64,000 bases of DNA from Syntrophaceae bacterium UBA2188 (GTDB lineage Bacteria > Desulfobacterota > BSN033 > UBA1163): positions 21,460 to 85,459 of the forward strand of contig DCVM01000058.1 of NCBI GenBank assembly GCA_002327985.1. The letters are read 5' to 3'. The translations under genes were made by a program, and so were the position numbers. The number at the start of each line of letters is the position of its first letter. The stretch's first letter is position 1. The notes beneath the pieces were generated by a model. It was not told the origin of the DNA. It did no database searches and saw nothing but the letters and a program-made list of their open reading frames with translations. This document shows positions 605 through 37,679 of the stretch, in pieces.

Positions 605-2074
605 TTATCCCTTAATCACTCCCATCGGGACAAGCTTGACCACTTTTCGGCTGATGCCGGCATGATGAACCACATCTACTACATCATTGACATCTTTATA
701 TGCATCGGAGATCTCTTCGACAAGGGTTCCCTGGCTTGCCCCCTTTACAACAATACCTTTATCTTCCAATTCCCTTGCAATCGCTCTCCCTTTAGCCGCT
801 TTAATGGCTTGATGCCGGCTCATCACCCGACCCGCTCCATGGCAGGTGCTTCCGAAGGTTTCTTCCATCGCTCTCTCTGTCCCCACCAATACATAGGAAC
901 ATCTACCCATATCCCCTGGGATGAGAACCGGTTGGCCGATGGACTGGTAATCGGATGGAATATCTGGATGATGTGGAGGGAAGGCCCGGGTCGCCCCTTT
1001 TCGGTGGACACAGAGCTTCTTTTTCTTTCCGTTCACCGTATGCGTTTCAATTTTAGCAATATTGTGACAGACATCATAGATCAAATCCAATCTTAAATCT
1101 TTTTGGCTTTTCTGAAAAACTTGTTCAAAGGTCTCCCTCACCCAGTGGGTGATCATCTGCCGATTGGTAAAAGCAAAATTGGCGGCACAGGCCATCGCCT
1201 CGAGATATTCTTTTCCTTCAGACGAAGAAACAGGGGCACAACAGAGTTGAGGATCTGGAAGTTCGATTTGATGTTTTCTGGTAGCATTCATCATGACACG
1301 GATGTAATCATCACAAACCTGGTGGCCTAACCCTCGTGAACCTGTATGGATAATAATGGTGACCTGATCTTTATATAGCCCCAGCGTTCGAGCAATGGCC
1401 TCATCAAAGACCTCAGCCACATACCCCGCTTCAACAAAATGATTTCCAGAACCCAAGGTCCCCAATTGTGCCCTACCCCTTTCCATTGCTTTTTCAGAGA
1501 CGCGATCTGGATTAGCTCCCTCGATGCATCCATGTTCCTCAATGTGTTCAAGGTCTTCTGCTGAACCAAAACCTTTTTCTATGGCCCACTTGGCCCCCTT
1601 TTTAAGGACCCGCCTCTCTTCCTCCCGATTCAATTTGAGATCCTTCCTATGGGACCCTACACCTGAAGGAATGTTGATGAAGAGGCCTTCCACTAACTCC
1701 TTTATTCTTCCCTGGATGTCGGTGCGGCTCAGACCTGAGCGCATCAATCGGACCCCTCAGTTGATGTCGTAACCCACCCCTCCTGGAGAAACGATTCCCT
1801 CCTCCATATCGAAGGCGGCCACCCCTCCAATAGGAAAACCATAACCCCAGTGGATATCCGGCATGGCCAAGGAATGGCCCACAATTCCTGGAAGCCATGC
1901 CACATTAGCCACTTGAACCAGACTTTGGTCCTTGCGGATATCGGTGAACAACCGCTCATCAGAATAGATGATCCCATCGGTTCTCATCTTTCCTTCTCGA
2001 GGAATTCGCCACCGATAATCATCTATCTTCTGGATTTTGATCTTTTCTTCTGGCGTCATCGGGTTGACTCCCAT
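605..2074 (-). CDS. rtcB: RNA 3'-phosphate/2',3'-cyclic phosphate ligase RtcB, predicted selenoprotein (UGA at 1757-1759 read as Sec)
   Basis: ORFs 1757..2074 and 605..1747 are in one frame, separated only by TGA. The joined sequence reads ...[37 protein letters not shown]..., matching the RtcB motif GxDINCGVR. The C-terminal part has typical RtcB blocks ([22 protein letters not shown]). An alternative start is Met6 (2059), which has a GGGAG Shine-Dalgarno (SD) sequence. Confidence 0.9.
1724..1759 (-). other. Recoded UGA (1757-1759) plus SECIS-like hairpin (1724-1742)
   Basis: mRNA: UGA GGGGUCCGAUUGAU GCGCUCAGGUCUGAGC(C)GC. Stem GCG/CGC plus CUCA/UGAG with apical GGUC. The apex CAGGUCUG is identical to the apex of the E. 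coli fdhF SECIS (GCAGGUCUGC). Confidence 0.75.
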
Positions 2075-2104: not shown

Positions 2105-2521
2105 TTAAAGATCCAGGATAATCTGTGCCCTCCAGCCTCGATTCTCTCTTTTAACCTGAATTTGATGGTAGGTCACGGCTTTCACCTCTGTTTTGATCGC
2201 ATGGACCCCCTCCTCATAAAGCTCTCCTTTCACGATCGCCTTCAGGCCACTCTCTCCAAGCGATTCCACTTTGAAACTTTTAAAGAGGAGATGCTCTACA
2301 TCATGAAGGTAGAGGAGTTCGCTCAACCAATCTACCATCAGGCGATCCAAACTCTCTCCTCCAATATGAATCTGTCTTTCGATCCGGCCTCTTACTTTTC
2401 GCAAATCCGTGATGAGGTGGAAGAACGCCTTCCCAGCATTCTCGAAAAGAGCCTTAAGATTTTCACCATGAACGATGATGCCAATATCCGCCGTATGATC
2501 CAAAATCTCATACCGCTTCAT
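2105..2521 (-). CDS. Archease (RtcB activator)
   Basis: 138 aa. N-terminal YEILDHTADIGIIVHG motif typical of archease. Sits immediately upstream of rtcB on the same strand. Confidence 0.85.
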   Translation of the reverse strand: MKRYEILDHTADIGIIVHGENLKALFENAGKAFFHLITDLRKVRGRIERQIHIGGESLDRLMVDWLSELLYLHDVEHLLFKSFKVESLGESGLKAIVKGELYEEGVHAIKTEVKAVTYHQIQVKRENRGWRAQIILDL

Positions 2522-2587: not shown

Positions 2588-2974
2588 TTATCCCCTCCTC
2601 TTTTTCTCCACCCTCTGGAGAAACGATTCTTTGGGCACGAGGACCCTCTCGTGCTCTCCTTCTGCCACCTTTTCCAACTCATCGAAGGCGTCCACCAGGA
2701 AAAAAAGCCGGTTCCTTCTTACTTCTTTTAGAAGGGCATGGGCAGTCACTTTCATCCCAGAGGGTGTGGGAGACAAATGCTTGATTTTTACCTCTGTCCC
2801 AAGGCTCACCTGGTCCGTGGGAATAAAATCATAAATCGCCTTGAGGGCGGCTGCTTCCAAAAGTTGTATCAACCTTGGCGTGGAAAGGACCTTGATGGGG
2901 ACCTCCCCCAATCGGCTGACGAGATCTTCTTCTTGAACGACCATCTCGGATTCTCCGGCTAACCCAGGTATCAT
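2588..2974 (-). CDS. Hotdog-fold thioesterase (FlK/YbgC-like)
   Basis: VLSTPRLIQLLEAAA...SLGTEVKIKHLSPTPSGMKVTAHA...NRLFFLVDAFDE..AEGEHERVLV pattern. Start moved to Met11 (ATG 2972-2974), preceded by GGAGGG. The track start at 3004 is a TTG. Confidence 0.65.
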   Translation of the reverse strand: MIPGLAGESEMVVQEEDLVSRLGEVPIKVLSTPRLIQLLEAAALKAIYDFIPTDQVSLGTEVKIKHLSPTPSGMKVTAHALLKEVRRNRLFFLVDAFDELEKVAEGEHERVLVPKESFLQRVEKKRRG

Positions 2975-3134
2975 TTTCCCTCCACTCCCACTCATGAGTC
3001 CCAAATCTCAAATCCAATTCAGACTCTTCAAAAAGTCAGCCTAAACCCGTTCCTTGTTAAAATGACCCCATCCTGAGATCCTGAAACGGGTTCAAGGGCG
3101 AAATTTATTTGGCATTTGGATTTAAACCCCTGAC

Positions 3135-3584
3135 TTAAAACTCAGTCAAAATTTCTTCGTCGTAAATCTTTTCCAGTTTCTCTTTATGGGTCATTTCTTC
3201 TTGGGCGAGGATCAAAAGCAATTTTTTCAGCTTCGGATCTATAACCCTCTTTTCTGTTGATAAATAAAGGCGATGGGATTTTTCTTCATTTTTGATCGCC
3301 ATTCGAAGGAGGTCCGCATAACTCATATCTGAGCTATACGGGGCATCCTCCATCATGCCACTAATTCCCAACCCTTTCGTCGGTTTCAATTTCATCTTTT
3401 CAATCTTCTTCAAATCAAATCCTTCGAGTTTTTTCTTGTGCCCTTCTTCCATTTTAGCCAATTCTTTGAAGGTCTTTTTCACACCAGGGTTAGAACGATC
3501 CGCTGCCATTTTGTAAAAAGCCGCTGCATCCGCCTCTTTTCGAATAGCCAACCTCAAAATTTCATCCAAGCTGTCCAGTTTCAT
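3135..3584 (-). CDS. Rubrerythrin-like ferritin-fold diiron protein (no rubredoxin domain)
   Basis: Two E...ExxH pairs (KEADAAAFY..MEEGHKKKL; KNEEKSHRLY..QEEMTHKEKL). Start at ATG 3582-3584, preceded by AAGGAGGAGGG. The track start at 3623 is unlikely. Confidence 0.75.
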   Translation of the reverse strand: MKLDSLDEILRLAIRKEADAAAFYKMAADRSNPGVKKTFKELAKMEEGHKKKLEGFDLKKIEKMKLKPTKGLGISGMMEDAPYSSDMSYADLLRMAIKNEEKSHRLYLSTEKRVIDPKLKKLLLILAQEEMTHKEKLEKIYDEEILTEF

Positions 3585-3840
3585 CTTCTCCCTCCTCCTT
3601 AAAAGTTTTTTTGACTTCAGCAATCAGTGTCTCTGTCTGCTCCCTATTTTTTTCAGAAACCATGACGATGCCCCATCCTTTCTGGGGAATATAGAGCCCA
3701 TCATAAGCGGTATCGAGAAAGGATTTAATGAGAAAGGGAATCCCAGCCTCTTGAAGGGCTTGAGAAATCCTATCCCCTTCAAATCGGTTTTCGATCGTCC
3801 CCGCCTTTACCCATTGGTCTATCGTCGCCATTAGATTCAT
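3562..3840 (-). CDS. Small hypothetical protein (DUF2007-like?)
   Basis: ORF 3562..3867. The true start is uncertain (TTG 3867, ATG 3840 or ATG 3831). It overlaps the next gene by 23 nt. The family call rests only on weak resemblance. Confidence 0.35.
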   Translation of the reverse strand: MNLMATIDQWVKAGTIENRFEGDRISQALQEAGIPFLIKSFLDTAYDGLYIPQKGWGIVMVSEKNREQTETLIAEVKKTFKEEGEDETGQLG

Positions 3841-5549: not shown

Positions 5550-5578
5550 TTGCCGTTTTTAACCTGCTCTGTTACAAT
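5550..5578 (+). promoter_or_regulatory. Putative sigma70-like promoter of rubrerythrin
   Basis: TTGCCG, 17 nt, TACAAT (5573-5578). AAGGAGGG RBS before ATG 5610. Confidence 0.4.
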
Positions 5579-5609
5579 TTCGTATAGTAAAAAATATAAG
5601 GAGGGTGTG

Positions 5610-6107
5610 ATGGGAACCAAGGCAGAAGAACACCTGAAGGAGGCATTTGCAGGGGAGTCCCAAGCCAATCGAAAATATCTCGCTTTTGCCAAAAAAGCAG
5701 ATGAGGAAGGATATTCCCAAGTTGCCAAACTTTTCAGGGCTGCGGCTGAAGCTGAAACCGTTCATGCCCATAACCATCTCCGGGTTTTGAAAGGGATCAA
5801 ATCAACCAAAGAAAACCTCCAGGAGGCCATCGGAGGCGAAACCCATGAGTTCAAGAGCATGTACCCCAGAATGATGGATGCGGCAAAGGCGGAGAAGGAA
5901 AACGCAGCCTTCCGGACATTTCAATTCGCCAATGAGGTAGAAAAGATCCACGCATCGCTTTACTCAAAGGCCCTGGAGAGCCTCGGAAAAAATGAAGTGT
6001 TGGATTATTATGTCTGCCCTATTTGTGGGAACACCGTTGAAAAGGAAGCACCGAATCTGTGCCCGATCTGTGGGGCTTCGGGTAAGAGTTTTATCAAGAT
6101 TACCTGA
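5610..6107 (+). CDS. rbr: Rubrerythrin
   Basis: MGTKAEEHLKEAFAGESQANRKYLAFA, EAETVHAHNH, GETHEF, EVEKIHASLY diiron motifs, plus a C-terminal CPICG...CPICG rubredoxin-like domain. Start chosen at the ATG with a strong RBS. Confidence 0.9.
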   Translation: MGTKAEEHLKEAFAGESQANRKYLAFAKKADEEGYSQVAKLFRAAAEAETVHAHNHLRVLKGIKSTKENLQEAIGGETHEFKSMYPRMMDAAKAEKENAAFRTFQFANEVEKIHASLYSKALESLGKNEVLDYYVCPICGNTVEKEAPNLCPICGASGKSFIKIT

Positions 6108-13979: not shown

Positions 13980-14435
13980 TCAGGTCATAAAATCGCAGAG
14001 CATCCCGGCAGTTTTCCCAACAATGTCAGTGCACTTTTCAAGACCCCCTGAAGCCAACCATTTTTGCCGTTCCTCTTCATTATCCAAATGACAATTTATC
14101 AGATCATAGCAATAACAGCTCCCAAACTCCTTTTCGAATTCCTTCCAGAATGCCTGGCATTTTCCGTAGATCTTTGTGAGGGCTTCCTTATCCTTGGGAT
14201 CGGATCTTCCCATCTTCATCCCGATAGCCATCACCGCCCCGGTGAATGCGCCGCAAAGCGACCCTTTTCGACCCACCCCTCCACCAAATCCTGTGGCCAA
14301 TTTTGGGATAAGTGGATCCTGAATCCCGAAATACTCCTTGAAACTCAAGGAGATAGATTCCGCTCAGTTAAATCCCTGCTCAAAATAACCTTTCGCCTTT
14401 TCAGAAATCAATTTCACATTCTCTTTCTCTCCCAT
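13980..14435 (-). CDS. C_GCAxxG_C_C family redox protein, predicted selenoprotein (UGA 14364-14366 read as Sec)
   Basis: The track ORF 13980..14348 starts at a TTG and lacks the family N-terminus. In-frame extension: ATG 14433-14435 (GAGGGG SD) gives MGEKENVKLISEKAKGYFEQGFN-U-AESISLSFKEYFG...GFGGGVGRKGSLCGAFTGAVMAIG. The result is about 151 aa, with U where homologues have GxNC(A)(Q/E). Confidence 0.75.
14321..14366 (-). other. Recoded UGA (14364-14366) plus SECIS-like hairpin
   Basis: 11 nt after the UGA: CUCCUUGA-GUU-UCAAGGAG (14334-14352), a perfect 8-bp stem, extended by GAAUC/GAUUC (14321-14325 / 14356-14360). Confidence 0.65.
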
Positions 14436-20882: not shown

Positions 20883-21758
20883 TTACCTCACTTTTTCTTT
20901 GAGCTCATTTAATTCCTCTCTCAAAGTTGAAATCGTCTTCTGCTGCTCCTGCATTGCTTTTTGCTGCTCCTGAACCACCTTGGTTAATACCGCCACGATG
21001 TCCATAGGACTTAGTCCCTTCCGATCCCTCGTTGCGATCAGATCAGGCACTTCTTCCGCAATAAACCCCACATGCTTCTCGGTCATGTCTTTCTTATAAG
21101 CAAACTTCACTGGATTAAGCTCCTTCAAAGTATCAAGAGCCTCCTCTGTGGCAAGAGCTTCGATGTGATCCTTATACTCCCTGCTCGAAGCATTGGTCCA
21201 GACCCCTCCGGTGGTCACATGAGCCCCACTGGCCATCTCCAAGGGATATAAAGGACTCTGGGTCCCAATCCCTACATAGCCATTGCCAATGATGGTGAGT
21301 CTTGGGTATCCCGCAGGGGTGGTGGTATTCGGAGCAGTAAAGAGGTCAAGCTGGGTGGCCGCATTGCCAATGGTGTTTCCACCTCCGAATGCAACAAAAT
21401 TATCGGTTAACGTGGAGGCTGCTCCAAACAGATAGACCGGCAATTGAGCATTGTTATAGTGGCGCAAGACCATCCGTGAACCCTTGATCGTGTTGTCCGC
21501 TATCGTGTTCGAGAGGAGAAGAAGCCCATTATCAGGCGCTACAACCTCAAGGTCCCGTGCAGGAGTAGATGTCCCAACACCTACCTTACCATCCTGTGTC
21601 ACGATAAACTTTATCTGACCCACGCCGTCCTTCACCACTAACCTGTCTTCCCCGGAAGCCAAAGTAGATACGAAAAGAACTAAAATGACGACCCAAAAGC
21701 CGACAGGCACAAAGCTCCCCACCACATCCAATCGTTTGATGCTTGCTCTTCTCTTCAT
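20883..21758 (-). CDS. Short secreted fibre protein with C-terminal peptidase-S74 intramolecular chaperone domain (paralog 1)
   Basis: MKRRASIKRL plus a hydrophobic leader, then GKVGVGTSTP...DNGLLLLSNT...GNGYVGIGTQSP...GGVWTNASSREYKDHIE...HVGFIAEEVPDLI...coiled-coil tail. Start at ATG 21756-21758, after AAGGAGGG. Confidence 0.8.
   Translation of the reverse strand: MKRRASIKRLDVVGSFVPVGFWVVILVLFVSTLASGEDRLVVKDGVGQIKFIVTQDGKVGVGTSTPARDLEVVAPDNGLLLLSNTIADNTIKGSRMVLRHYNNAQLPVYLFGAASTLTDNFVAFGGGNTIGNAATQLDLFTAPNTTTPAGYPRLTIIGNGYVGIGTQSPLYPLEMASGAHVTTGGVWTNASSREYKDHIEALATEEALDTLKELNPVKFAYKKDMTEKHVGFIAEEVPDLIATRDRKGLSPMDIVAVLTKVVQEQQKAMQEQQKTISTLREELNELKEKVR
20989..21129 (-). repeat. 141-nt perfect inverted repeat with 57315-57455
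   Basis: The reverse complement of 20989-21129 is identical base-for-base to 57315-57455 (checked by hand across the block). Confidence 0.85.
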
Positions 21759-21799
21759 CTTTGCCCTCCTTATAACTATCATTTGGGTTTTATTTGACC

Positions 21800-24700
21800 C
21801 TATTGCAAAATGATATTTTCAATAATCATCGTTCCATTGGTAATCGTAATGGAACCGTTAATAGTGGTATAAGATGAATTCGATGTAAAATCTGCACCCC
21901 ATCCACCCTGAAGCGTAATCTCTTCGTCAAAATCCAGAATAATATTTTCATTATAAGTTTCTTGAGTGATCTTAATTATGGAGGGAACAGAGGCTATGGC
22001 AATTCCATTCTGGATTTTGGGGAAACAAGGATTGTAACCACTGCATAAACCATCCTTAGAAACATAAATAGTAAACAGATCATAGTAAATCGTAATGGTC
22101 TGAGAAGTTTGATTATGGGTCGGGCAGTTGTCATAGGCAATAACCGTGATCGGATTAGCCCCTGGATTCAATGCCACCTCCTTGCTCCAGTTCGCCGTTC
22201 CGCTTCCCGTCGCCGTATCATTGTTTGCCCGAGCCCCGTTGACCGTCACCTGTTGGAGGCCGTTGTCTCCCTGCCCCGAATCACTCGCGGTTCCGACCAG
22301 GGTAATACTCGGGGTACTGACATGCTGGCCATTGTTGTGACTCGTAATCGATAATGAAGGCCCCGTCGTATCAGGGCACGCTTGAGTAGTTTGAGAGCCC
22401 AGGGACGTCCATTCCGTCTCAAGGCCATCCCCGTTCTTGCCTTTCACCCTGAAGCTATAGGAAGTGTCACAGGCCAAGCTACAGCTATTCCAAGAGATGC
22501 CGGTAGTCCAACCGGAGTTCGTTCCTGCTGTAATATTTTCGCAGTAATACTCTGTACCGCTTCTATTGCCGTTGGCCGTCCAGTTCGCCCGGATGCAAGT
22601 CTGTGTTACGTTCGAGAAAGAAGACGCCCCAGGACCGCTGGCGAGCGTGTATTTGTAAACCGTTAATGAGTAAGAGGTCTCGTTGGGTGTGGAGGCTGAA
22701 TCCCTCGCCTTTACCTGATACCCGTACTGATGGTTAGGCTGAAGCCCCGTATTCGTGTAAGAGGCTGAACTCTGCCAGCCCGCATCCGAGCCACCCGTGC
22801 CCCCTGTTGGACTGTTTACGAAATGGAAGTAATAAGATACAGGTGGGCTTCCGGCGTCCGTTGCCGTGTTCGCTACCATCGATATCGATGATGCGCTTGC
22901 CCCATAAGGAGAGGTTAACCAGGTCATGGGATTCGGCGCCGGTGGAGTTGTATCAACAACAGGGCCCAGGAACTCATAGGCTCCTATGTCCACGATGTAG
23001 GTACCATTGTTGTCGCCATCCATGACCCGTGGATTGCCTTCAACGTCCGTCGTCATGTTAGGAGGAACATCACTATTACTCCCTGCGTCAATACAGGGAG
23101 AAGTGGCCATTAGATGAAAATCTCCCGATGCCCTATTCACAAAAAGGGGATCCATGTGAATATCCGTTGCTCCTCCCGATAGAGGAGAGATATAATCAGG
23201 GCCGGGGGTGTTATAAACATTATTCTTTACAAGAGTTGGGGGAATCATGGGGGTTGTGGGGTGTCCAAAAATCCCTGAAGAATTGAAGGCAATGATGTTG
23301 TTTGCGATGACAATGCGATCCGGAATGGGCACGGGAGGAGTAGTAATAGGAGGAGGAATGGCAACGGCAATACCTCCTCCTTGTTCAATGGTTCCATATG
23401 CTGTGGCTGTATTTCCAACGATTGTGTTATTCAGAATGAAAAGACTCTCAACCGCATCGGTACGAGCAAAGGCGTAGATACCACCTCCAATCCCCCCATT
23501 GCCGGCCGTAGGATCAGAGGCTGCATTATTGATGATCAGGTTATTCAGAATCTTCCCGGTGAGATTGGGTGCCACATGGATTCCCGCTCCCATAGCTGCT
23601 GTATTTCCTTTTATAATATTTCTTTCAATATAAAAGTTGTCCCCAAGTGTTAGTGTTACAGCTCCATGAACAGCTCCCATGTAGAGAGGTTGAAAAACGT
23701 AAAAGGTATTGTTCTCGATGAGGTTATCAACGATCCTGGGTGTTGAAAGGGTAGTAAATATTGCAGGGCCAAATCTTGCCCGATTTTCAGTAATGGTGTT
23801 ATCCTCAATCGTCGGTATCGAATTTCTAAAGTAGATGGCGCCGCCTTCCCCATCGAAGGTGTTCAAAAGTTCATTTTGAGTCAAGGTGTTTCCTGCGATG
23901 ATGGCATGACTTAAATAACCGTAAATCCCGCCCCCCACAGCCGGTTTACTGGCATTTTCAAAAGGATCGCCCAGGGAGTTCCGATGAATGAGGTTGTTTA
24001 ATATATATGGAGAGGTAACGCTGACATGAATGCCTCCGCCTGCGCCTTCATATCGGGGAGGAGAAAATGGACATGCACCACCGGTATAACTGCCTCCATT
24101 CTGAATGGTGAAGCCGTCCAATGCACTAACCAGATAGCCTGATCCTATAATTTTAACGACATTAGGAATGCCGCCGCCATCAAGAATGGTGGGATTGGCA
24201 ATAATGTTCCTTTGAGCTCGACTGCTTTCATTTCCGGCAAACCCCCCATAAAGATAAACGAAGGCAGGAATACTGATTCGCTCCGCATAAGTCCCTGCAG
24301 CTACCCAGACCTCCCCGCCTGTTAAGGCAGTGGCAGCGATTCCTGCGGATACGGTTCTTTTCGCTGTTCCCCAAGTTAAGCCATCCTGGGCATCATTGCC
24401 TCCCGGCTTAACATGAATAATAGGGGTAGGCACATTCCACAGAGTGCCGTCTGATTCATCCGCACCGATATCCACGCTGACTCCAATTACCCTAAGCTGG
24501 CCGTCAATATCCGTCCATTCAGGCTCAACGTCGGACATGGATCCAGCATTACGGCATGGAGAATCCGACTGTAAATGAAATTCCCCAATTTTATAATTGG
24601 CCATCTTGGGATCTGCGGAGATATTTCCATTTAGACCTGTCTGCTCAGCGATCCCTTTATAGTCCGACTTCTCTCCCTGAAGCACATTGCCATACACACA

Positions 24701-25840
24701 GTTGTAACGAATGACAGGATAGGATGGGGTTAATGAAGATTGTTCAAGACCCCAGGTGTTAAAGGCCACCAGGTTATTACTGACAACCGGAAAGCTGTTG
24801 GCCCAGAAAATCCCAGCCCCGTGGTTGGCAAATAATGTGTTATTCATGACCTTGGGAGGTGGGTAAAGGCCCGGATCCAAAGGAGGTGGAGAGTCAATGA
24901 TGCAGATGCCACCCCCTAAATATCCTCCATTTGCCGCAATGACGTTATTGATAATGGTAGGAGCGCTTACTGCATACGAAACGGGCTGGCCAACCACATC
25001 ATTAGTTGTGGCAAAGATCCCCCCTCCACCTATACCAAACACAGTTGTCTGCTTCGCATAGTTGGCAAAGATGAGGTTGTTGGAAATGATTGGGGAGGAA
25101 TGCCCCCAGGAACCAATGCCTCCTCCGTTGTCTGCGGCCTCATTGCGGGCAATAATGTTATAGGCAATGGTCGGAGAAGAACTGGGGAGATGGACAATAT
25201 TATTCGAACCCCAGACAGAAATGCCTCCTCCATCAACAGCCTTATTGTTCACAATCATATTATGGGTAATCACGGAGTGTGCTCTTGGTTGTGTAATTTT
25301 GTATTCCGAAATACTAATGCCCGGCCCATTGTTAGATTTAATGACATTGTTGGTGATGACAGGGCCTGAAGCTATGATGGCTATTCCGGACCCGTTTCCA
25401 TTCATGATATGAAACCCATCCATGCGTGTTTCAGGTCCGGCCATCGCTCGAATGCTCACAACAACGCCGGCGTTGTTCCCGTCCAAGATTGAAATATTGA
25501 GGTTCCAATCTCGCTGGGTACGCACTGTCTCCGTTCCAGCAAACCCACCATAAAGGGCCACATTCACGGCTACGTCAGTTCCTCCTACATTGACTACCTT
25601 GTTCTGGATGTTTTCCTGGTATGTGCCTGCAGCGACCCAGATTTCATCCCCTTCGCTGGCTGCATTAATCGCGGCGGTGACAGTCCTCTTAGCCAAAGAC
25701 CAACTTGCTCCGGAATTCGTATCGTTGCCGTCAGGTTTTACTCGGAGGATCGCAGAGTGAGCGACCGCTTGAAATAAAAACAAACCCATTACAATGAGGG
25801 TTAAAGACAGAGCGATTTTAGAAATGGAATGTCGTTGCAT
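21800..25840 (-). CDS. 1346-aa secreted multidomain protein: two right-handed beta-helix (Pmp/GGxI-repeat, choice-of-anchor-Q-like) units, two FN3-like domains, an Ig-like domain and a 75-aa C-terminal module
   Basis: Signal peptide. Duplicated caps (VKPDGNDTNSGASW...GDEIWVAAGTYQENI and VKPGGNDAQDGLTW...GGEVWVAAGTYAERI). GGGI/GGAIY repeats. DP.F....GDFHL...SPCIDAG...DIGAYE motifs. Confidence 0.8.
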   Translation of the reverse strand: MQRHSISKIALSLTLIVMGLFLFQAVAHSAILRVKPDGNDTNSGASWSLAKRTVTAAINAASEGDEIWVAAGTYQENIQNKVVNVGGTDVAVNVALYGGFAGTETVRTQRDWNLNISILDGNNAGVVVSIRAMAGPETRMDGFHIMNGNGSGIAIIASGPVITNNVIKSNNGPGISISEYKITQPRAHSVITHNMIVNNKAVDGGGISVWGSNNIVHLPSSSPTIAYNIIARNEAADNGGGIGSWGHSSPIISNNLIFANYAKQTTVFGIGGGGIFATTNDVVGQPVSYAVSAPTIINNVIAANGGYLGGGICIIDSPPPLDPGLYPPPKVMNNTLFANHGAGIFWANSFPVVSNNLVAFNTWGLEQSSLTPSYPVIRYNCVYGNVLQGEKSDYKGIAEQTGLNGNISADPKMANYKIGEFHLQSDSPCRNAGSMSDVEPEWTDIDGQLRVIGVSVDIGADESDGTLWNVPTPIIHVKPGGNDAQDGLTWGTAKRTVSAGIAATALTGGEVWVAAGTYAERISIPAFVYLYGGFAGNESSRAQRNIIANPTILDGGGIPNVVKIIGSGYLVSALDGFTIQNGGSYTGGACPFSPPRYEGAGGGIHVSVTSPYILNNLIHRNSLGDPFENASKPAVGGGIYGYLSHAIIAGNTLTQNELLNTFDGEGGAIYFRNSIPTIEDNTITENRARFGPAIFTTLSTPRIVDNLIENNTFYVFQPLYMGAVHGAVTLTLGDNFYIERNIIKGNTAAMGAGIHVAPNLTGKILNNLIINNAASDPTAGNGGIGGGIYAFARTDAVESLFILNNTIVGNTATAYGTIEQGGGIAVAIPPPITTPPVPIPDRIVIANNIIAFNSSGIFGHPTTPMIPPTLVKNNVYNTPGPDYISPLSGGATDIHMDPLFVNRASGDFHLMATSPCIDAGSNSDVPPNMTTDVEGNPRVMDGDNNGTYIVDIGAYEFLGPVVDTTPPAPNPMTWLTSPYGASASSISMVANTATDAGSPPVSYYFHFVNSPTGGTGGSDAGWQSSASYTNTGLQPNHQYGYQVKARDSASTPNETSYSLTVYKYTLASGPGASSFSNVTQTCIRANWTANGNRSGTEYYCENITAGTNSGWTTGISWNSCSLACDTSYSFRVKGKNGDGLETEWTSLGSQTTQACPDTTGPSLSITSHNNGQHVSTPSITLVGTASDSGQGDNGLQQVTVNGARANNDTATGSGTANWSKEVALNPGANPITVIAYDNCPTHNQTSQTITIYYDLFTIYVSKDGLCSGYNPCFPKIQNGIAIASVPSIIKITQETYNENIILDFDEEITLQGGWGADFTSNSSYTTINGSITITNGTMIIENIILQ

Positions 25841-26158: not shown

Positions 26159-26737
26159 TTATCTCAGGCCGTCTTCTCTTTTAGCCTCTTCTTTTTTCAA
26201 ACCACCAATTCTTGCATGAGGTCTGCCTGAATCCGTGACCACGATGGCAACGAGGATTTCATCGGACCGGGGGGCATCGGGAACTCGGACAGTCATGGCA
26301 TCGAAATGAGTACGGACAAAGGCAGCGTCTTTATAATGAAGGGGTACATCAATCTCAGTCCCCGGACCACCCATTTTCTTGGCGGAAGGAATAATCGCCT
26401 TTCCTCCACCAACTGCTTCTCTTAAAGGCGTTCCCAATTTGGGATGCAAGATGGCTGCGGCGTGTTCCAGTTCACCATCTCCCCCCACAATCGCTGCCTT
26501 CCCATAACTCTCTGCATCCTTAGGAGGAATTTTCAATACCTCAACAGCCCTTTTCCCAAGGATTCCCCCCAACTCTTCACCGATATCGATGAGTTCATCC
26601 AATTTTTCTACATACTTCCCTGCAAAAGGATTCTTAATCACTGCGATGGCTGCCGCCTTTCGAGTTGGCGGATCAACTTTTTTCCCTCCTTCGACTGCTG
26701 TCTCCTCTACAATGGTGACATATTTTCTGACTTCCAT
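26159..26737 (-). CDS. Amino-acid-synthesis family protein (PF06684/DUF1185-like)
   Basis: MEVRKYVTIVEETAVEGGKKVDPPTRKAAAIAVIKNPFAG..., recognised as the AA_synth family. Has its own GGGAGGTG RBS. Confidence 0.65.
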   Translation of the reverse strand: MEVRKYVTIVEETAVEGGKKVDPPTRKAAAIAVIKNPFAGKYVEKLDELIDIGEELGGILGKRAVEVLKIPPKDAESYGKAAIVGGDGELEHAAAILHPKLGTPLREAVGGGKAIIPSAKKMGGPGTEIDVPLHYKDAAFVRTHFDAMTVRVPDAPRSDEILVAIVVTDSGRPHARIGGLKKEEAKREDGLR

Positions 26738-26740
26738 ATT

Positions 26741-26827
26741 TCACCTCCCACCCCTCACCCCTGCCTACCGGCTGGCAGGCTATCCCTCTTCCTCAAGGGG
26801 AGAGGGAAACGTGAGGCGGATTTCTTT
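26741..26827. repeat. GC-rich composite palindromic element
   Basis: CCTGCCtaccggctGGCAGG and CCCTCTtcctcaagGGGAGAGGG inverted repeats between two co-directional genes. Confidence 0.55.
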
Positions 26828-27718
26828 TTATAATTTAGTTAACCAAGAACTCAAAATATTTGTCCAAACCACTCTCCCTTTTAAAGCAATTAAAGCTCCA
26901 TGAATCAACCCTTTCTGATAGAGCATGCTTGCTTTTGATAAACCGTTATTCAATGCCTGTTCAATCTTTTCTTGAGTTAATTCTCTAACTTTAATGGTGA
27001 TCCATTCTCCAGCAATGTCTGTATCGGGATAAATTCTTTCAGCAGGGGTTCTGTTAATATTCGGATCATCAATGTTGGTGAAATTTCCTACAACCGTCGC
27101 CGCGGCGTCAGCCAGTGAAGCCTTCTCCGCAAGCACGGTTGCGGCTGAGGCAATCCCTTTGGTGAAACTCCTTCCTCCCAGTCCACTCGTAGCTACTCCA
27201 CCTATCCCCATGGTGGAATCAATTGAAAGGAGATAAATAGGTTGCTTTGCATCGATCTCTGTTTTTACTCCTACTTTTGCCACCTCCTTTTCTCTCAATC
27301 GGATGGCAACATCTCCTCCATTATCCACAATGATTTTTGTTCCCCCTTGACTGAACATAAAATCAGCCACCACATCAGAGGCCGTTCCGGCAACGGCAGA
27401 TAGAGGAGTTAAATCCGGTTCTTCCATTTTCTTTGTGGCTTCAATCATCCTTCGAACTACATCAGGGAACTCCTCCTCGATTTCCAACTCCTGTGATTTC
27501 CTTTTTATTATCGGAAGACACTTTGCTAAATCCTCAAGAACCCCCATAGCGAAACGAGCCCCTTCTTCTGCCAATGTAACAAGAGGTTTTCCATTTTCTG
27601 AGGCATTGATGAACATATGCATGGGACCATAATCCACAAGGACAATCCCATTGTGTAAAACTTGAATAGGATCATGGGTATATATTTTTTCGGCCAATTG
27701 CATAATCATATCAGCCAA
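26828..27718 (-). CDS. UPF0280 family protein (ApbE superfamily)
   Basis: 296 aa. The family assignment is by overall resemblance and by typical co-occurrence with Hnr-like and AA_synth genes; not verified by search. Confidence 0.5.
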   Translation of the reverse strand: MADMIMQLAEKIYTHDPIQVLHNGIVLVDYGPMHMFINASENGKPLVTLAEEGARFAMGVLEDLAKCLPIIKRKSQELEIEEEFPDVVRRMIEATKKMEEPDLTPLSAVAGTASDVVADFMFSQGGTKIIVDNGGDVAIRLREKEVAKVGVKTEIDAKQPIYLLSIDSTMGIGGVATSGLGGRSFTKGIASAATVLAEKASLADAAATVVGNFTNIDDPNINRTPAERIYPDTDIAGEWITIKVRELTQEKIEQALNNGLSKASMLYQKGLIHGALIALKGRVVWTNILSSWLTKL

Positions 27719-27750
27719 ACCACATTAGCTGTGGAAATACACTTTTTAAA

Positions 27751-27812
27751 ATCCCTCCCCACCTCCCTTTGCTAAAGGGAGGAGAAAATTCACCCTCTTT
27801 AATAAAGGGGGG
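27751..27812. repeat. Two GC-rich hairpins (CCTCCCTTT-GCT-AAAGGGAGG; CCCTCTTTAATAAAGGGGGG)
   Basis: Read directly. The second unit resembles 13757-13777 (CCCTCTCATAAAGGGGG). Confidence 0.55.
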
Positions 27813-27850
27813 ACAAGTGGTGATTATGTTTGAATATTGGTCATTGAAAT

Positions 27851-29407
27851 TTATTTGGGTATTGATGCTTGGGGTTTGGTGCTTCTTCCTATCTCCTTCA
27901 ATACTTGCTTCAGCTTCCGTATCTTCTCTTGATGGCCGCCCATTTCCAAATATTCTTTCAATCTCATTGTATATTCGAGGGGAACAACGGTGGCTGGAGT
28001 GGGAACATAGGTAAAAGCCCTGACCATAACCTTTTCAACGTCCACCAAGAAAGTGATTCCTCCCCCCGGAAGGATGTAGGTCGGTGCTCCGCCTACAGTC
28101 AATTTCGCCCGATTTTGATGAATGGCTTGGTTGAGTTTAACAGGAACCTTGGTGACCCCTGCTCTTGCGCTTCCGCCCGAGCCACCAACAAAAACGGCTG
28201 AAACCCTTGACGCCTGACAGTTGGAAGCAATCATATCCACTGCTATTTTCGCCTTGGGAGTTAATTCAATTTGAGTAAACTTTCCATCCTTTCCCAGACG
28301 AAACATAACAGCTCTCTCTGCGGTCGTCTCGGTGATTAGAACCGTCGTCCCAGATTTAGCAATCTTCGTATCGAATCCTTCAATAATTTGAATGGGGTCT
28401 TCAATGGGTGTACCTCCCCAACCCCGGCCAGGCTCACCGAAATATCTGCCTGGGGTGGATTTTCTTGCCTTTAACTTGATCCCACTATATTTTGCCCCCA
28501 GCTCTCTTCCTGCCGCATGCTCTGTAAATTGCCCAATCAGGTGAGCATCGAGGACAATCACTTCGTCTGCTGCATCTAAAAAATACCTTCCGAAAAGCCC
28601 CATGGAGGCACTGCCACACCCTACCCTCATCCTCCTTCCCGTCTCACCATCAATGATCGGGGGTTTAGCCACCTGGAGAACCAGCTCAGCACCCTCCTCG
28701 ACATTAAGATGAACCTCTTTCCTATTCGCAATGTCAACAATGAGTCTCGCCACAGCAATGCCATCCTTGCCTGTTAAAAGATTGACTCCTCCCAGGGAAA
28801 GAATTTTTGAACCATATTCCTCTGTGCAGAGATGACCCACCTTCTTTTTCCCGATCCGAATGGGCGCACCTTCGTTCCCCATATGGAGATCTGTATCGAC
28901 CTTCACCTTGATACCACTGTAGCTCAACGGCGCCTCTGTGACAACGGTGACCACATCGATTCCCTTCAACCGGGATTGGACAATATACGGGGCGGGTTTG
29001 GTATCCGGATAAGTAGTTCCAGCTCCAATACCTGTAATCAACGGCCGACGAATGACCTCCTCATGATCTTCACCGACAATCTCCCTCACATCTTCATAAG
29101 GTTGAAGCGGGATATTCCGGACGAGTTCTCCATCTCGATTGACAAACCGTTGACAGGCTCCCGTATTGCCGACCTTGATCGTGCAGTTGATTGGGCACGA
29201 TGGGCACTGAATGCCCCTTTCTTTCGGCCCTGGCTCAGCTCCGATGGCTTCTTTGGGACAGACCTTGGTGCAAGCCTGACAGTCGACACAGATTTCAGAA
29301 ATGGATGCTTTTTTATCTTTCCTCTCTAGCGCCATAGATATGGCCCCGAGGGGACAAACCTCCATACATAAGCCACATCCAATACAGGTCTCCCAATCAA
29401 CTATCAT
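27851..29407 (-). CDS. Ferredoxin-domain reductase, 6-hydroxynicotinate reductase (Hnr)-like
   Basis: N-terminal 2x[4Fe-4S] motifs (CIGCGLCMEVCP; CVDCQACTKVCP) plus further Cys clusters. Size and context (next to an enamidase homologue) fit Hnr. Confidence 0.6.
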   Translation of the reverse strand: MIVDWETCIGCGLCMEVCPLGAISMALERKDKKASISEICVDCQACTKVCPKEAIGAEPGPKERGIQCPSCPINCTIKVGNTGACQRFVNRDGELVRNIPLQPYEDVREIVGEDHEEVIRRPLITGIGAGTTYPDTKPAPYIVQSRLKGIDVVTVVTEAPLSYSGIKVKVDTDLHMGNEGAPIRIGKKKVGHLCTEEYGSKILSLGGVNLLTGKDGIAVARLIVDIANRKEVHLNVEEGAELVLQVAKPPIIDGETGRRMRVGCGSASMGLFGRYFLDAADEVIVLDAHLIGQFTEHAAGRELGAKYSGIKLKARKSTPGRYFGEPGRGWGGTPIEDPIQIIEGFDTKIAKSGTTVLITETTAERAVMFRLGKDGKFTQIELTPKAKIAVDMIASNCQASRVSAVFVGGSGGSARAGVTKVPVKLNQAIHQNRAKLTVGGAPTYILPGGGITFLVDVEKVMVRAFTYVPTPATVVPLEYTMRLKEYLEMGGHQEKIRKLKQVLKEIGRSTKPQASIPK

Positions 29408-29424
29408 GGTTTCAGTCCTTTTAT

Positions 29425-30591
29425 TTATTGTTTACTGGTTACGACCTTCCCATTAGGTGGTGGAGTATTTCTGCTCACTCCGATCTTCATCACCCCATCA
29501 ATCAACACACCTGCAATCCCTGGGATATCACCCACTTCAATAGCAGAGAGGGCATCTTTGCCAACCGATCCCATGGGTGCATCCATAATCACCAGATCTG
29601 CTTCCTTCCCCACTTCAATGACTCCCCTATTCAATCTGTAAACTCTGGCAGTGTTGCCTGTGGCCATAGCAATGGCTTCCTCTGCTTTCACATTGCAGAG
29701 GGAGGCTAAAAAGTTAATCACCCTGAGAATGCCCAAAGGGATCACGCCCGTTCCAGAGGGAGCATCGTTACCAATAATCATTCTTGGATAAGCCTTGACC
29801 TCTTTTACAATTTTCATCACATCTACAATCATCTTTGAGTTCCCACAGTGGGCAATTTCTAAAATCAAAGAGGTTTTTCGAATCAATTTATCTGCTTCCT
29901 GAAAAGAAATCGCCGTGGGACCTCCATTAATATGGGAGACGATATCTGGACCGGCAGCAATCACATCATCAGCAGGAACGGTTGTACTCCCAGGAATAGA
30001 CGTCCCCCCGGTATGCATCATTACCACCATTCCATATTTCTTTGCCCATTTGACCATGGGGGCTGCATCCTTTGGTGTTTTGATGCCTCCCAAACCAATC
30101 TCCCCCACAACCTTCACTCCTTCTTTGGCCAATTCCTCAAAATCTTTTTCCTGCAAACCAGGCTCAAGAATGAGGCTCCCACCTAATACCTTCACCCCTG
30201 CGGGTCGAGCGCTTGCAAAGGATTTTGCAGCCAGGATCGCAAGGGCTTTTGTTCCTGCTACATCCTTAGGTCTCCCCGGGAGATGAACCTCACCTGCTGA
30301 GATAAGAGTGGTTACCCCCCCGTGAAGCGAGGATTCGATAAAATCTAACATCTTTTGCCTGGGTGTAAAATCTCCAAGAACAGGGTGGCAGTGAGAATCA
30401 ATGAGTCCCGGAGTGATGGTCATCCCCCCAATGTCCAAAACCTGATCTATTCCCTTCGTGTCAAGAGCCTTCTCCTTGCCCAAAGCTTGAATCAATCCTC
30501 CATCTATAATGATGGTGTCTGCATTCAAGACAGGATTAGAAATATCCCCAGAAACCAAAGCGCCAATATTCTTAATCATCAGTTTAGCCAT
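29425..30591 (-). CDS. Enamidase-like amidohydrolase (1,4,5,6-tetrahydro-6-oxonicotinate amidohydrolase family)
   Basis: IKNIGALVSGDISNPVL...GGVTTLISAGEVHLPGRPKDVAGTKALA...MHTGGTSIPGS...VSHINGGPTAI...GNDAPSGTGVIPLGILR closely follows my recollection of the Eubacterium barkeri enamidase sequence. Confidence 0.75.
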   Translation of the reverse strand: MAKLMIKNIGALVSGDISNPVLNADTIIIDGGLIQALGKEKALDTKGIDQVLDIGGMTITPGLIDSHCHPVLGDFTPRQKMLDFIESSLHGGVTTLISAGEVHLPGRPKDVAGTKALAILAAKSFASARPAGVKVLGGSLILEPGLQEKDFEELAKEGVKVVGEIGLGGIKTPKDAAPMVKWAKKYGMVVMMHTGGTSIPGSTTVPADDVIAAGPDIVSHINGGPTAISFQEADKLIRKTSLILEIAHCGNSKMIVDVMKIVKEVKAYPRMIIGNDAPSGTGVIPLGILRVINFLASLCNVKAEEAIAMATGNTARVYRLNRGVIEVGKEADLVIMDAPMGSVGKDALSAIEVGDIPGIAGVLIDGVMKIGVSRNTPPPNGKVVTSKQ

Positions 30592-30608
30592 TTAAAACCT
30601 CCCCATAT

Positions 30609-30638
30609 CGCTATGCGCATAGCGCTAAGCGCTTAGCG
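30609..30638. repeat. Palindromic element CGCTATGCGCATAGCG + CGCTAAGCGCTTAGCG (inverted copy of 4584-4627)
   Basis: Two overlapping perfect 16-bp palindromes. The second contains the stop codon of the hydroxylase large subunit. Confidence 0.7.
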
Positions 30639-32873
30639 TTGTTTACTTTTATGAATCGCTTCCAACACTCGTTCCAAGTTTGCTGGCAAATGGTAAATTC
30701 TCTCCCCAATGGCATCTGCAATCGCATTCAGGATCGCTGGGGCAGAGGGAATAAGGGCTGGTTCTCCAACCCCTTTCGCTCCAAAGGGACCGGTGGGTTC
30801 TTTCTCTTCAACGACAATCGGGATCACTTCCGGAACGTCCTTAGAAGTCGGGATGAGATAATTGACAAAAGAGGTTGTCTTTCCCGGAATGAATTCCTCC
30901 ATCAAGGCAAAACCCGTACCCATGGCGACACCACCCATAATCTGACCCATCACATTTTTTGGATGAATGGCTTTACCCACATCATGGCTGGCAACCATCC
31001 GATTGACCCTCACCTTACCCGTTTCTAAATCCACCTCCACTTCTGCTAAATGAGTGGCAAAGGCATAAGTCGCATAAGGAGCTCCCTGCCCGGTTTCAGG
31101 ATCAAGCCGGGTCGTCTCAGGATCGAAATACCCTTCTCCTCTTATCACCCTTCCACACCTTTTTGCTATCTCTTTAATTGGAATAGATGTCGTTAAGCAG
31201 GTCCTCGATTTGACCTTCCCCTCTTCATAAAAAAGGTCCTTTTCATCAATGCTTAATAGCTGACTTGCTTCTCCGATGGCAACCTCTTTCAAATTTTTAA
31301 TGGCATTAAGGATGGCATTTCCGGAAATATAAGTCTGGCGACTCGCTGAGGTTGCACCTGCATCGGTGGTTATAGCTGTATCCGCCCGAATCAGACGGAA
31401 ATCTTTTAAAGAAACCCCTATTGTTTCAGAAGCAATTTGAAGAAGGATTGTATCAGACCCCTGCCCGATATCTGCCACCCCTGTAAAAAGTCGAATCTCT
31501 CCATTTGGATCAACCTCTACCTGGGCAGTCGAAGGGTTGGCAATCCCTGTATTTCCCACTCCATACCACATCGAACCAATCCCAATGCCTTTTTTAATAA
31601 AGGGTCTTTTTGGATTGTTTTTAGAGAAGAACCCTCGCTCCCTCCACTCTTTTACCTTGTTTAAGGTCTCCCCTATTCCAACACTGGCCATCAACGTTTG
31701 ACCCGTCGCTGTTTCAGATCCCACACGGAGGCAATTTTTAAGACGAATCTCTATTGGGTCCATGTTCAAGGCCTGGGCGAGGAGATCCATCTGTGACTCG
31801 TGGGCGAAGGCCATCTGGGGAACTCCAAAACCGCGCATCGCACCAGACCATGAATTATTGGTATAGACCATCCGGCTTCTAACCTTTACGTTGGGCACCT
31901 GGTAAGGGCCTGTGGCATGGACAGCAGATCGGATGGCTACAGTGGAACCGTAAGAAGCGTAGGCACCCGTATCTCCCAGGATGTCAACCTCCACAGCGGA
32001 AAGGGTCCCATCCCTCTTTGCGCCGCTTTTATATCGAATCTTCAAAGGATGACGTTTAGAGGTAATCTGGAAAACTTCCTCCCTCGAGTAAATAATCTTC
32101 ACTGGCCTTTTCAGATGAAAAACGGCCAGGGCCAGTAAACACTGGACAGTGATGTCTAATCTTCCCCCAAACCCTCCGCCCGTAACAGACTGAATGATTC
32201 TCACCTGATCCAACGGCAAAGAGAGAACAGAAGCCACCTCTTTCTGATCGTAATGGACATTCTGGGTGGGGCAAACTACCGTAATTCTTCCTTGCTCATC
32301 CAGGTAGGAAATCCCTGCATCGGGCTCTAAATAAGCGTGATCCACCCAAGTGGTCGTATAGGTTTCTTCGACAATGACATCCGCTTCTTTAAATCCTCTC
32401 GGGCTATCTCCTTTTATCACATGAAATTCGAGAAGCAGATTTCCTTTATCATGAATCAGAGGAGCATAAGGCTGGAGGGCTTCTTCTGGTTGGAAAACGG
32501 CAGGGAGATCTTCATAGATAACTCTCAATTTCTTCGTTGCCTGTTCTGCAAACTCCTCTCCATTGGCCACCACCAATGCAACGGGATCTCCGATATATCT
32601 CACCCGGTCTGAGGCTAAAATGGGCTGATCCTTGGTAATGGTTCCAACCAGATTTTTCCCGGGAATATCTTTGGCTATGAAGATTTTCTCCACACCTGGA
32701 ACTCGAAGGGCTTCATCCATTTCGATTCTTACAATTTTGGCATGAGGTTTTGGACTGCGGAGGACTTTAAGGAAAAGGAGTTCCCCTGTAGGCAAATCTG
32801 CCCCATACTTCGCTTCACCCAAGGCCTTCTCTAAAACATCCACTTTGGGAACTTCAATCCCTACCTGTCTCAT
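30633..32873 (-). CDS. Molybdopterin-dependent hydroxylase large subunit (xanthine dehydrogenase/nicotinate dehydrogenase family)
   Basis: 746 aa. a/b-hammerhead plus MoCo-binding blocks (GGGFGGR, GQGS, EPxxxGPFGAKGVGE). Confidence 0.85.
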   Translation of the reverse strand: MRQVGIEVPKVDVLEKALGEAKYGADLPTGELLFLKVLRSPKPHAKIVRIEMDEALRVPGVEKIFIAKDIPGKNLVGTITKDQPILASDRVRYIGDPVALVVANGEEFAEQATKKLRVIYEDLPAVFQPEEALQPYAPLIHDKGNLLLEFHVIKGDSPRGFKEADVIVEETYTTTWVDHAYLEPDAGISYLDEQGRITVVCPTQNVHYDQKEVASVLSLPLDQVRIIQSVTGGGFGGRLDITVQCLLALAVFHLKRPVKIIYSREEVFQITSKRHPLKIRYKSGAKRDGTLSAVEVDILGDTGAYASYGSTVAIRSAVHATGPYQVPNVKVRSRMVYTNNSWSGAMRGFGVPQMAFAHESQMDLLAQALNMDPIEIRLKNCLRVGSETATGQTLMASVGIGETLNKVKEWRERGFFSKNNPKRPFIKKGIGIGSMWYGVGNTGIANPSTAQVEVDPNGEIRLFTGVADIGQGSDTILLQIASETIGVSLKDFRLIRADTAITTDAGATSASRQTYISGNAILNAIKNLKEVAIGEASQLLSIDEKDLFYEEGKVKSRTCLTTSIPIKEIAKRCGRVIRGEGYFDPETTRLDPETGQGAPYATYAFATHLAEVEVDLETGKVRVNRMVASHDVGKAIHPKNVMGQIMGGVAMGTGFALMEEFIPGKTTSFVNYLIPTSKDVPEVIPIVVEEKEPTGPFGAKGVGEPALIPSAPAILNAIADAIGERIYHLPANLERVLEAIHKSKQR

Positions 32874-33733: not shown

Positions 33734-33827
33734 ATGATCCTACTTAATGTTGGAGGAAAGAGGAGCACTTTGTTTGAGGTAAAAAATTTTTGCCTCTTGC
33801 CTCAAATCCTCCGAAGAAGAACGATCC
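33734..33827. repeat. TTGAGG/CGATCCTCAA word element inserted between hydroxylase subunit genes
   Basis: CGATCCTCAA at 33822-33831 overlaps the S-subunit stop. Contains a TTGAGG...CCTCAA hairpin. The same 10-mer occurs at 40431-40440. Confidence 0.55.
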
Positions 33828-35764: not shown

Positions 35765-35856
35765 ATGTTACCTCTCCTTTTGATTGAATATTTTCTTCCC
35801 TCTTCCTTTCCTCCTCCTCTTGAGTGATAAGGTGGGGATGATGGCAAATATTAAAG

Positions 35857-37652: not shown

Positions 37653-37679
37653 GTCCTGCCACTCCTAAAAATTCGATCG

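Follow-up and report, generated by a model that had tools for sequence, protein, structure and literature searches.

An in-frame UGA in place of the metal-bridging cysteine codon of bacterial rtcB genes, followed by a conserved SECIS-like hairpin, points to a selenocysteine-containing RNA ligase

The stretch of DNA analysed here (the window) is 64,000 nucleotides (nt) long and comes from Syntrophaceae bacterium UBA2188 (GenBank assembly GCA_002327985.1, contig DCVM01000058.1, forward-strand positions 21,460 to 85,459). The gene of interest is rtcB, a complete RNA ligase gene on the (-) strand at 605..2074, identified by Pfam PF01139 and by comparison with solved structures, which carries one in-frame UGA at 1757..1759 (-), the proposed selenocysteine (Sec) codon at residue 106, and shortly after it a hairpin that resembles a bacterial selenocysteine insertion sequence (SECIS). 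From position 2074 to 605 the frame has 490 codons, and the TGA at 1757-1759 is its sole interruption; the open reading frames (ORFs) 1757..2074(-) and 605..1747(-) are in the same frame and are separated by this TGA alone. A sequence-only reading of the stretch had taken these two ORFs for one frame broken only by TGA and had placed the TGA at the canonical metal-ligand cysteine (Cys), and both points are borne out by the shared frame, by a full-length Pfam match and by structure-based alignment, as follows. When the TGA is read through, the product is a 489-amino-acid (aa) protein that covers positions 1-426 of the 426 in the Pfam RtcB model with 602 bits (cut-off 27) and aligns end to end with solved RtcBs (Thermus thermophilus TTHA1785 and Pyrococcus horikoshii PH1602, E ~1e-175). 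The TGA codon falls opposite the Cys of the DINCGVR motif in structures 2epg, 7lfq and 1uc2, that is, in place of the Mn2+-bridging Cys98 of P. horikoshii RtcB and Cys122 of the human enzyme (residue 118 of the tagged 7lfq chain is the Cys98 equivalent).

The other catalytic residues (P. horikoshii numbering) are conserved in this alignment, namely Asp95, His203, His234, His329 and the guanylylated His404, and the motifs D-I-N, GSGNHF (His203), HTGSRG (His234), (A/C)HNI (His329) and STCHGAG (His404) are all present. The metal-bridging Cys98 by which the RtcB family is recognised is missing, its codon being UGA, and the residue is proposed to be Sec, a chemically analogous ligand. It is here that the gene departs from the family, which is no ground for excluding it. 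An intein at this position was considered, as the best NCBIfam match is an intein-containing RtcB model, but the score is far under the cut-off, the extein parts alone match and no insertion is present, and an intein is ruled out. In P. horikoshii RtcB the intein splice junction is at this very Cys (PMC4150793), and the Cys98 codon may be seen as a hotspot for unusual genetic events, with intein insertion there in one case and putative Sec recoding in the other.

The predicted hairpin, which we call type 1, occupies 1723..1743 on the (-) strand, nt +17 to +37 counted from the U of the UGA, and has the arrangement UGCG-CUCA-[GGUC]-UGAG-(C)-CGCA: a 4-bp lower stem (UGCG/CGCA), a bulged C on the 3' side, a 4-bp upper stem (CUCA/UGAG) and a GGUC apical loop at 1732-1735. 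The sequence-only reading had placed it 14 nt downstream of the UGA and had called its apex the same as that of the Escherichia coli fdhF SECIS; we located GCGCUCAGGUCUGAGC(C)GC at 1742-1724, 14 nt 3' of the UGA, and the apex CAGGUCUG is indeed identical in the two hairpins (5,419 E. coli genomes served to verify the fdhF sequence). The rtcB loop takes up nt 25-28 from the U of the UGA, and the fdhF loop nt 22-25. The UGA-to-loop spacing in the window gene is 21 nt, and the bSECISearch rule is said to place the loop about 16-37 nt from the UGA. The fdhF determinants attributed to Liu et al. 1998 are reportedly a GGUC loop with G23/U24, a 5' bulged U17 and a minihelix 11 nt from the UGA; measured against these, the loop and apex of the rtcB hairpin are identical, but its spacing is 13-14 nt and its bulge is a 3' C. 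A bacterial SECIS is described as a stem-loop directly 3' of the UGA, within the ORF, with a small apical loop that contains G (PMC1088965), and the rtcB hairpin is such an in-ORF stem-loop, with a small G-containing loop at a conserved position. Because single-sequence folding is uninformative for short GC-rich segments, comparative tests were used to judge it (below).

The closest relatives of the window product in a collection of 5.8 billion proteins are 120 proteins that are 87-91% identical to it. About 115 of these are 379 aa long, having been cut at the same site by gene callers, and three are full length (483-484 aa), all with Cys. The exact C-terminal product of the window gene is present on nine contigs from independent ENA, JGI and SRA assemblies, and on all nine a separate 100-105-aa RtcB fragment precedes it. 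The syntenic loci L001-L003 have TGA, and a syntenic ortholog that is ~90% identical (L004/P0033) has TGC followed by an identical hairpin. A DNA pattern encoding GVG[YF]DIN-TGA-G[VI], in which the hairpin was left unspecified, matches at least 120 metagenome contigs, with 114 distinct sequences among the matches listed. A set of 70 distinct Cys forms has TGC or TGT at the DIN-C-GVR codon. Among the 80 best species-representative genomes, 10 species-level genomes have TGA at the RtcB Cys codon, and these fall in two phyla, with the labels Syntrophaceae, Desulfarculaceae and Thermodesulfobacteriota/'Deltaproteobacteria' plus two Acidobacteriota (a Marinacidobacterales chromosome and one further metagenome-assembled genome). 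The pairing of Cys with Sec that alignment to RtcB homologues had been proposed to check thus holds, with TGA in one set and TGC/TGT in the other at an exactly aligned position that is occupied by a catalytically essential residue.

Such recurrence bears on whether the TGA could be a recent inactivating mutation or an assembly or sequencing artefact. NCBI-style pipelines would flag this rtcB as disrupted, and one of the 120 matched contigs listed (L091) has a further in-frame stop 75 codons downstream of the TGA, which could be due to misassembly, to decay of this copy or to recoding at a second site. However, the identical TGA is found in independent assemblies and samples and recurs across Sec forms that are 50-97% identical to one another, all catalytic residues are retained, and among the contigs listed the frame is open upstream of the TGA in 120 of 120 and downstream in all but L091. 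Between the window gene and relatives that carry the TGA, the ratio of nonsynonymous to synonymous substitution rates (dN/dS) is 0.014-0.096 for the part before the TGA as well as for the part after it, dS being ~1 or saturated; one value of 0.98, for the upstream part of L023, was discarded as an artefact of an indel in an ungapped comparison. Both halves of the gene are under purifying selection, and these open frames and low ratios constitute coding conservation on either side of the UGA, as is looked for in selenoprotein genes. Sequencing error and pseudogene decay were among the outcomes that the sequence-only reading had named as refuting it; the first is excluded by the identical split gene on nine contigs from independent samples and the second by the 119 of 120 listed matches that are open downstream, with dN/dS of 0.01-0.1, and we consider it extremely improbable that an inactivated or artefactual gene accounts for the TGA.

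Sec and Cys forms of the gene are intermingled in a neighbour-joining tree of 151 non-identical near-full-length sequences, which was built from p-distances, has no support values and is descriptive only. The Sec forms make up at least ten runs interleaved with Cys forms, and the syntenic Cys ortholog L004 is nested among Sec forms. This arrangement indicates repeated Sec/Cys switching at the RtcB site, as read from these sequences: the two forms would interconvert repeatedly by single-base change (TGA to TGC/TGT) and leave fossil hairpins behind in some Cys forms.

Is the hairpin associated with the TGA? We compared 127 distinct Sec (TGA) sequences with the 70 distinct Cys sequences, searching nt 10-56 for hairpins of -6 kcal/mol or better, and such hairpins are present in 120 of the 127 Sec sequences versus 27 of the 70 Cys sequences. 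In 100 of the Sec forms the first nucleotide of the apical loop is at nt 24-26 (at nt 25 in 83), and the loops are GGUC, GGUU, GGUCU, GUC, AGUU, CGUGUU and similar, with GU in at least 90; the Cys-form hairpins are at scattered positions. Among the few Cys forms with a hairpin at nt 24-25 are some that are close to the Sec clade (L004/L005, L009 and L014), which suggests that these are "fossil SECIS" elements left by recent reversion from Sec to Cys through a single base change. When native sequences were compared with synonymous-codon-randomised versions that encode the same peptide, the Sec forms were more structured than their recodings (mean z -1.33, 65% below -1), whereas the Cys forms had no excess structure (mean z -0.06); the Mann-Whitney p for this difference is ~1e-15, a value that overstates independence because the sequences are related.

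The stems themselves vary by lineage while staying in the same register: GCGCUCA/UGAGC-GC, GCGCUCC/GGAGCGC, GCGUUCC/GGAACGC, GAAGACC/GGUCUUC, ACGGACC/GGUCUGU and CUUGAGGA/UCCUCAAG. They encode differing peptides (RSGLSR, RSGLER, KTGLVF, RTSLVC and RSFLKV). RNAalifold predicted no consensus structure for the ungapped type 1 alignment, because the sub-classes differ by bulge or loop length, and it was replaced by pair counts on explicit structures and by register-aware counting. By the latter, compensatory changes on both strands are present at 5 of the 8 stem levels. In the unbulged sub-class 96.2% of the cells pair, versus 74% in shuffles and 23-44% with slid partners, and both-sided changes are present at 6 of the 8 pairs.

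About 20 Sec sequences (peptide LLRSNLTK...) have a different hairpin, type 2, with an 8-11-bp stem (nt 20-30/40-50) and a 9-nt A-rich loop. Covariation is seen at 6 of its 11 pairs versus 1.5 in shuffles, and 0 of 500 shuffles scored as high; RNAalifold applied to type 2 returned a UGA-proximal helix only, and this without covariation. The type 2 carriers (peptide GVRLLRSNLTK...) lie within L085-L204 (for example L087, L097, L098, L108, L116 and L147), and in these forms an additional helix takes in the UGA itself (UGAGGNG...CUCCUCA). An independent origin, or a SelB of another lineage, may lie behind the type 2 structure. Taken over both types, the hairpin appears from these sequence comparisons to be a selected RNA element tied to the TGA, and it is the comparative data, not the single sequence, that give grounds for regarding it as more than chance.

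These same data can be set against the idea that rtcB is a split gene, in which translation stops at the UGA to give a 105-aa N-terminal fragment and restarts at an AUG 13 nt downstream, the two pieces then assembling or acting separately. Gene callers do report two ORFs, of 100-105 aa and 379 aa, on hundreds of contigs, and the constant UGAGG offers a Shine-Dalgarno-like GAGG that in the window lies 8 nt ahead of the AUG. But the restart codon is not conserved, being CUG, UUG, GUG or AUC/AUA in many Sec forms (as in LLRSG, LVKTG and LIRTS), and the type 2 Sec forms are without a nearby start codon. A split enzyme would, in addition, be without the metal-bridging residue, and Cys-to-Ala mutants are ligase-dead (PMC10630183). 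Restart also leaves unexplained both the TGA-specific covarying hairpin and the interchange of TGA and TGC in near-identical orthologs, and we think a split gene very unlikely.

Whether this organism decodes Sec was addressed through the rest of the window. TGA is not a reassigned codon here, because it is the terminator of 13 of the 53 window genes, and UGA reassignment is ruled out. A second selenoprotein gene, of the C_GCAxxG_C_C family, is at 13980..14435 on the (-) strand (PF09719 positions 1-116 of 118). Its in-frame TGA at 14364-14366 (-) is on the family's first conserved Cys and is followed at 14334-14352 (-) by a SECIS-like hairpin, CUCCUUGA-GUU-UCAAGGAG, of 8 bp with a GUU loop and -15 kcal/mol, 11 nt after the TGA (its first base is nt 15 from the U). 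Relatives of this gene are mostly 124-125 aa and cut at the same place, with one Cys homolog (P0177), and several of their ENA protein calls have Trp at the TGA site, probably through translation of TGA under code 4. The C_GCAxxG_C_C family is a catalogued selenoprotein (PMC13188914, Table 1), and the presence of such a gene in the window supports, at the level of sequence, Sec decoding by this organism.

The UGA could instead be read through without selenium, by a near-cognate tRNA-Cys or tRNA-Trp or by Cys carried on tRNA-Sec, with the hairpin merely slowing termination. Stimulation of read-through by downstream structure is known in general, and sel genes were absent from the sequence examined: the 64-kb window with the 10 kb beyond either end (~84 kb) and 1.34 Mb of related flanks yielded no selA, selB, selD or tRNA-Sec. 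Pfam annotation of the 53 window genes and extension by 10 kb past both ends turned up no sel genes, tblastn of E. coli SelA and SelB against the 1.34 Mb of related sequence gave no match, and ARAGORN found no tRNA in the window and no tRNA-Sec among the 22 tRNAs across all loci collected. Selenium-free read-through does not, however, sit well with the apex that the window hairpin has in common with fdhF, or with carriers that are mostly labelled deltaproteobacterial/Thermodesulfobacteriota, which are presumably Sec-rich lineages. The position, size and small G/U-containing loop of the hairpin are typical of a bacterial SECIS (PMC1088965), and the gene of a catalogued selenoprotein family in the same window has the same TGA-plus-hairpin signature. 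Inefficient read-through would also be costly where the residue is essential for catalysis, given that changing one base gives TGC, a route that has been taken repeatedly. We judge selenium-free read-through to be very improbable, with only a few chances in a hundred.

Our preferred interpretation is that rtcB encodes a full-length RNA ligase in which UGA-106 is translated as Sec, and from the sequence evidence we hold this to be very probable. It is what the sequence-only reading had claimed, a Sec codon at the RtcB metal-ligand Cys with a bacterial SECIS, and it has behind it the comparative signs by which a bacterial selenoprotein gene is usually recognised: the Sec/Cys pair, the recurrence of the TGA, the covarying hairpin of the Sec forms and purifying selection on either side of the TGA. 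The second selenoprotein gene of the window adds to these. Several observations weigh on the other side. Besides the lack of sel genes in the ~84 kb and the 1.34 Mb just described, the Rfam scan of the window gave no family match, and the window hairpin by itself does not exceed dinucleotide shuffles in stability (z = +0.5 to +0.8). Its resemblance to the fdhF SECIS is partial, the loop being 3 nt farther from the UGA and a 3' C bulge replacing the 5' U, and the statistical tests above treat related sequences as independent. Both selenium incorporation into RtcB and the Sec trait of this genome are things we infer from sequence. Nor is it obvious what would be gained by pairing the soft ligand selenolate with Mn2+, which is a hard ion. 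Finally, P. horikoshii RtcB with an engineered Sec98 underwent spontaneous cleavage of the peptide chain (PMC4150793); evidently not every RtcB readily accepts Sec here.

If UGA-106 is indeed Sec, the hairpin (8-bp stem, 3' bulged C, GGUC loop) would recruit SelB-GTP-Sec-tRNA(Sec) as the ribosome nears the UGA, and Sec would be delivered to the A site in competition with RF2. In the resulting 489-aa enzyme a selenolate would, by homology to the solved structures, replace the thiolate that bridges two active-site divalent metal ions. The Cys of RtcB ligates both Mn2+ ions, one of which it holds with His234 and His329 at the GTP alpha-phosphate and the other with Asp95 and His203 at the gamma-phosphate, and substitution of this Cys by Ala leaves the archaeal, E. 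coli and human enzymes ligase-dead (PMC10630183). The metal ions would position GTP for guanylylation of the catalytic His (the His404 equivalent, which is present in the window RtcB), with the archease encoded upstream (below) as guanylylation activator, and the remaining chemistry is presumably as in the Cys form: a His-GMP intermediate, transfer of GMP onto the RNA 3'-phosphate, and attack by the 5'-OH to join the RNA.

As for what Sec might bring, selenolate is fully ionised at physiological pH, and oxidised forms of selenium are readily re-reduced. The RtcB Cys is oxidised in aerobically purified P. horikoshii enzyme (PMC10630183, PMC12263435), and Cys122 of human RTCB, described as "invariant", is oxidation-sensitive, is shielded by PYROXD1 (PMC12263435) and is kept reduced by thioredoxin (PMC10653391). 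Because the Cys is an oxidation-sensitive weak point and oxidation of a selenolate is readily reversed, Sec may be protective for RtcB, as is proposed for [NiFeSe] hydrogenases, and may keep the ligase from being inactivated irreversibly by oxidation or metal catalysis. An altered metal affinity or preference is a second possible advantage.

Directly upstream of rtcB is the gene for archease, the RtcB activation factor (2105..2521, (-) strand; PF01951, 5.5e-45), in agreement with the archease assignment first made from the letters alone. The archease-rtcB order is kept in related loci, and the two genes probably form an operon. Upstream of this pair, and conserved by synteny, is a FlK-type hotdog thioesterase gene (2588..3004, (-) strand), and two rubrerythrin-family genes (3135-3623 and 5550-6107) flank the thioesterase-archease-rtcB cluster, an arrangement that is kept in the related loci L001, L004 and L205. 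An oxidative-stress context of this kind would fit the proposed role of Sec, although it is an association only. Between the rtcB stop codon and a DUF1786 gene are two intergenic heptamer tandem arrays, TTTGCTA in 5.1 copies at 566-601 and TGGCTTA in 4.7 copies at 512-544.

Farther along the window, the regions 20883-25840, 49845-51467 and 55168-57581 encode four proteins with a C-terminal Peptidase_S74 (endosialidase intramolecular chaperone) domain, as well as a 1346-aa beta-helix/DUF1565 protein and an S8 subtilase; such a concentration of tail-fibre-like or self-cleaving surface proteins is unusual for a bacterial chromosome. A cluster at 26159-38747 includes a xanthine-dehydrogenase-family molybdenum hydroxylase (MoCoBD, FAD and 2Fe-2S subunits) together with an aldehyde dehydrogenase, an amidohydrolase, an AA_synth protein and a tripartite ATP-independent periplasmic (TRAP) transporter. 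Given a Sec-using anaerobe, this hydroxylase could be a candidate for the selenium-dependent type.

The recoding mechanism proposed here and the enzyme are both known; what would be new is the residue, which had been regarded as invariant, and its non-redox metal-bridging role. Almost all known selenoproteins are redox enzymes, and to our knowledge the experimentally established contacts between Sec and metals are with Mo/W and Ni only. We know of no selenolate ligand described at a binuclear metal site of the RtcB family. In open full text, the literature on RtcB together with selenocysteine, selenoprotein or SECIS yields the engineered U98 protein only, and searches under older names of the family yielded nothing. 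Of the 119 prokaryotic families and subfamilies of selenoproteins inventoried in May 2026, none is RtcB/PF01139. Neither RtcB nor any ligase is entered in the deep-Sep supplements, and the RtcB models of NCBIfam release 20 (June 2026) are of the ordinary and intein-containing kinds only, with no Sec form. Sec-RtcB is thus apparently a genuine, widespread and uncatalogued selenoprotein family. We put roughly even chances on the fuller claim that a widespread family has gone unrecognised and gives RNA repair and splicing their first natural selenoenzyme, with a selenolate bridging the binuclear centre of a non-redox nucleotidyl transferase.

If this is correct, Sec-RtcB would be a bacterial answer to oxidative inactivation of an active-site Cys, the problem that animals solve with PYROXD1, and Sec as a bridging ligand in an RNA ligase would be a new kind of selenium-metal site and a wider use of Sec, with a metal preference that may shift, a move from Mn2+ to another ion being one example. 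Two SECIS architectures that are unrelated, and Sec forms scattered over the tree, would imply many gains or losses of Sec at one residue. Oxidation of the RtcB Cys is much studied in human tRNA splicing and the unfolded protein response (PYROXD1, thioredoxin), and natural Sec variants with close Cys orthologs one base apart would be ready-made enzyme pairs for work on oxidation resistance and metal use. Hundreds of database entries would also be mis-annotated, as 379-aa fragments or pseudogenes, and a Sec-aware family model would correct them.

The window RtcB is ~60% identical over its whole length to canonical Cys-RtcBs (P. horikoshii PH1602, T. thermophilus TTHA1785 and human RTCB) and has the same Asp/His metal ligands, the same guanylylated His and an adjoining archease gene; it differs in that the metal-bridging residue, a Cys called invariant in that family (PMC12263435), is encoded by UGA and followed by a putative SECIS. 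With E. coli fdhF it shares an in-frame UGA, an in-ORF stem-loop with the identical apex (GGUC loop) and, for RtcB by inference, Sec as a metal ligand. Unlike the Mo/W of the fdhF redox site, however, the metal of RtcB would be a divalent ion, Mn2+ or another, at a site of nucleotidyl transfer, and other Sec-RtcB lineages have different stems or the type 2 hairpin. In [NiFeSe] hydrogenases, too, Sec stands in for a metal-ligating Cys, with protection from irreversible oxidation as the proposed benefit (PMC13188914), but these are redox enzymes in which Sec is experimentally established, whereas the benefit to RtcB is hypothetical. The engineered P. horikoshii RtcB U98 (Haruna et al. 2014, PMC4150793) has Sec at the very same residue; it is an artificial, self-cleaving protein made by UAG/EF-Tu-based insertion, whereas the natural Sec forms are evidently kept by selection. 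A homolog of methylated-DNA-protein-cysteine methyltransferase adjoins rtcB in related loci as a single full-length ORF of 168-173 aa and appears to be a Cys form. The catalogued Sec form of that methyltransferase (PMC13188914) resembles Sec-RtcB in acting on nucleic acid outside classical redox metabolism, but its Sec is a stoichiometric alkyl acceptor and not, as is proposed for RtcB, a metal ligand.

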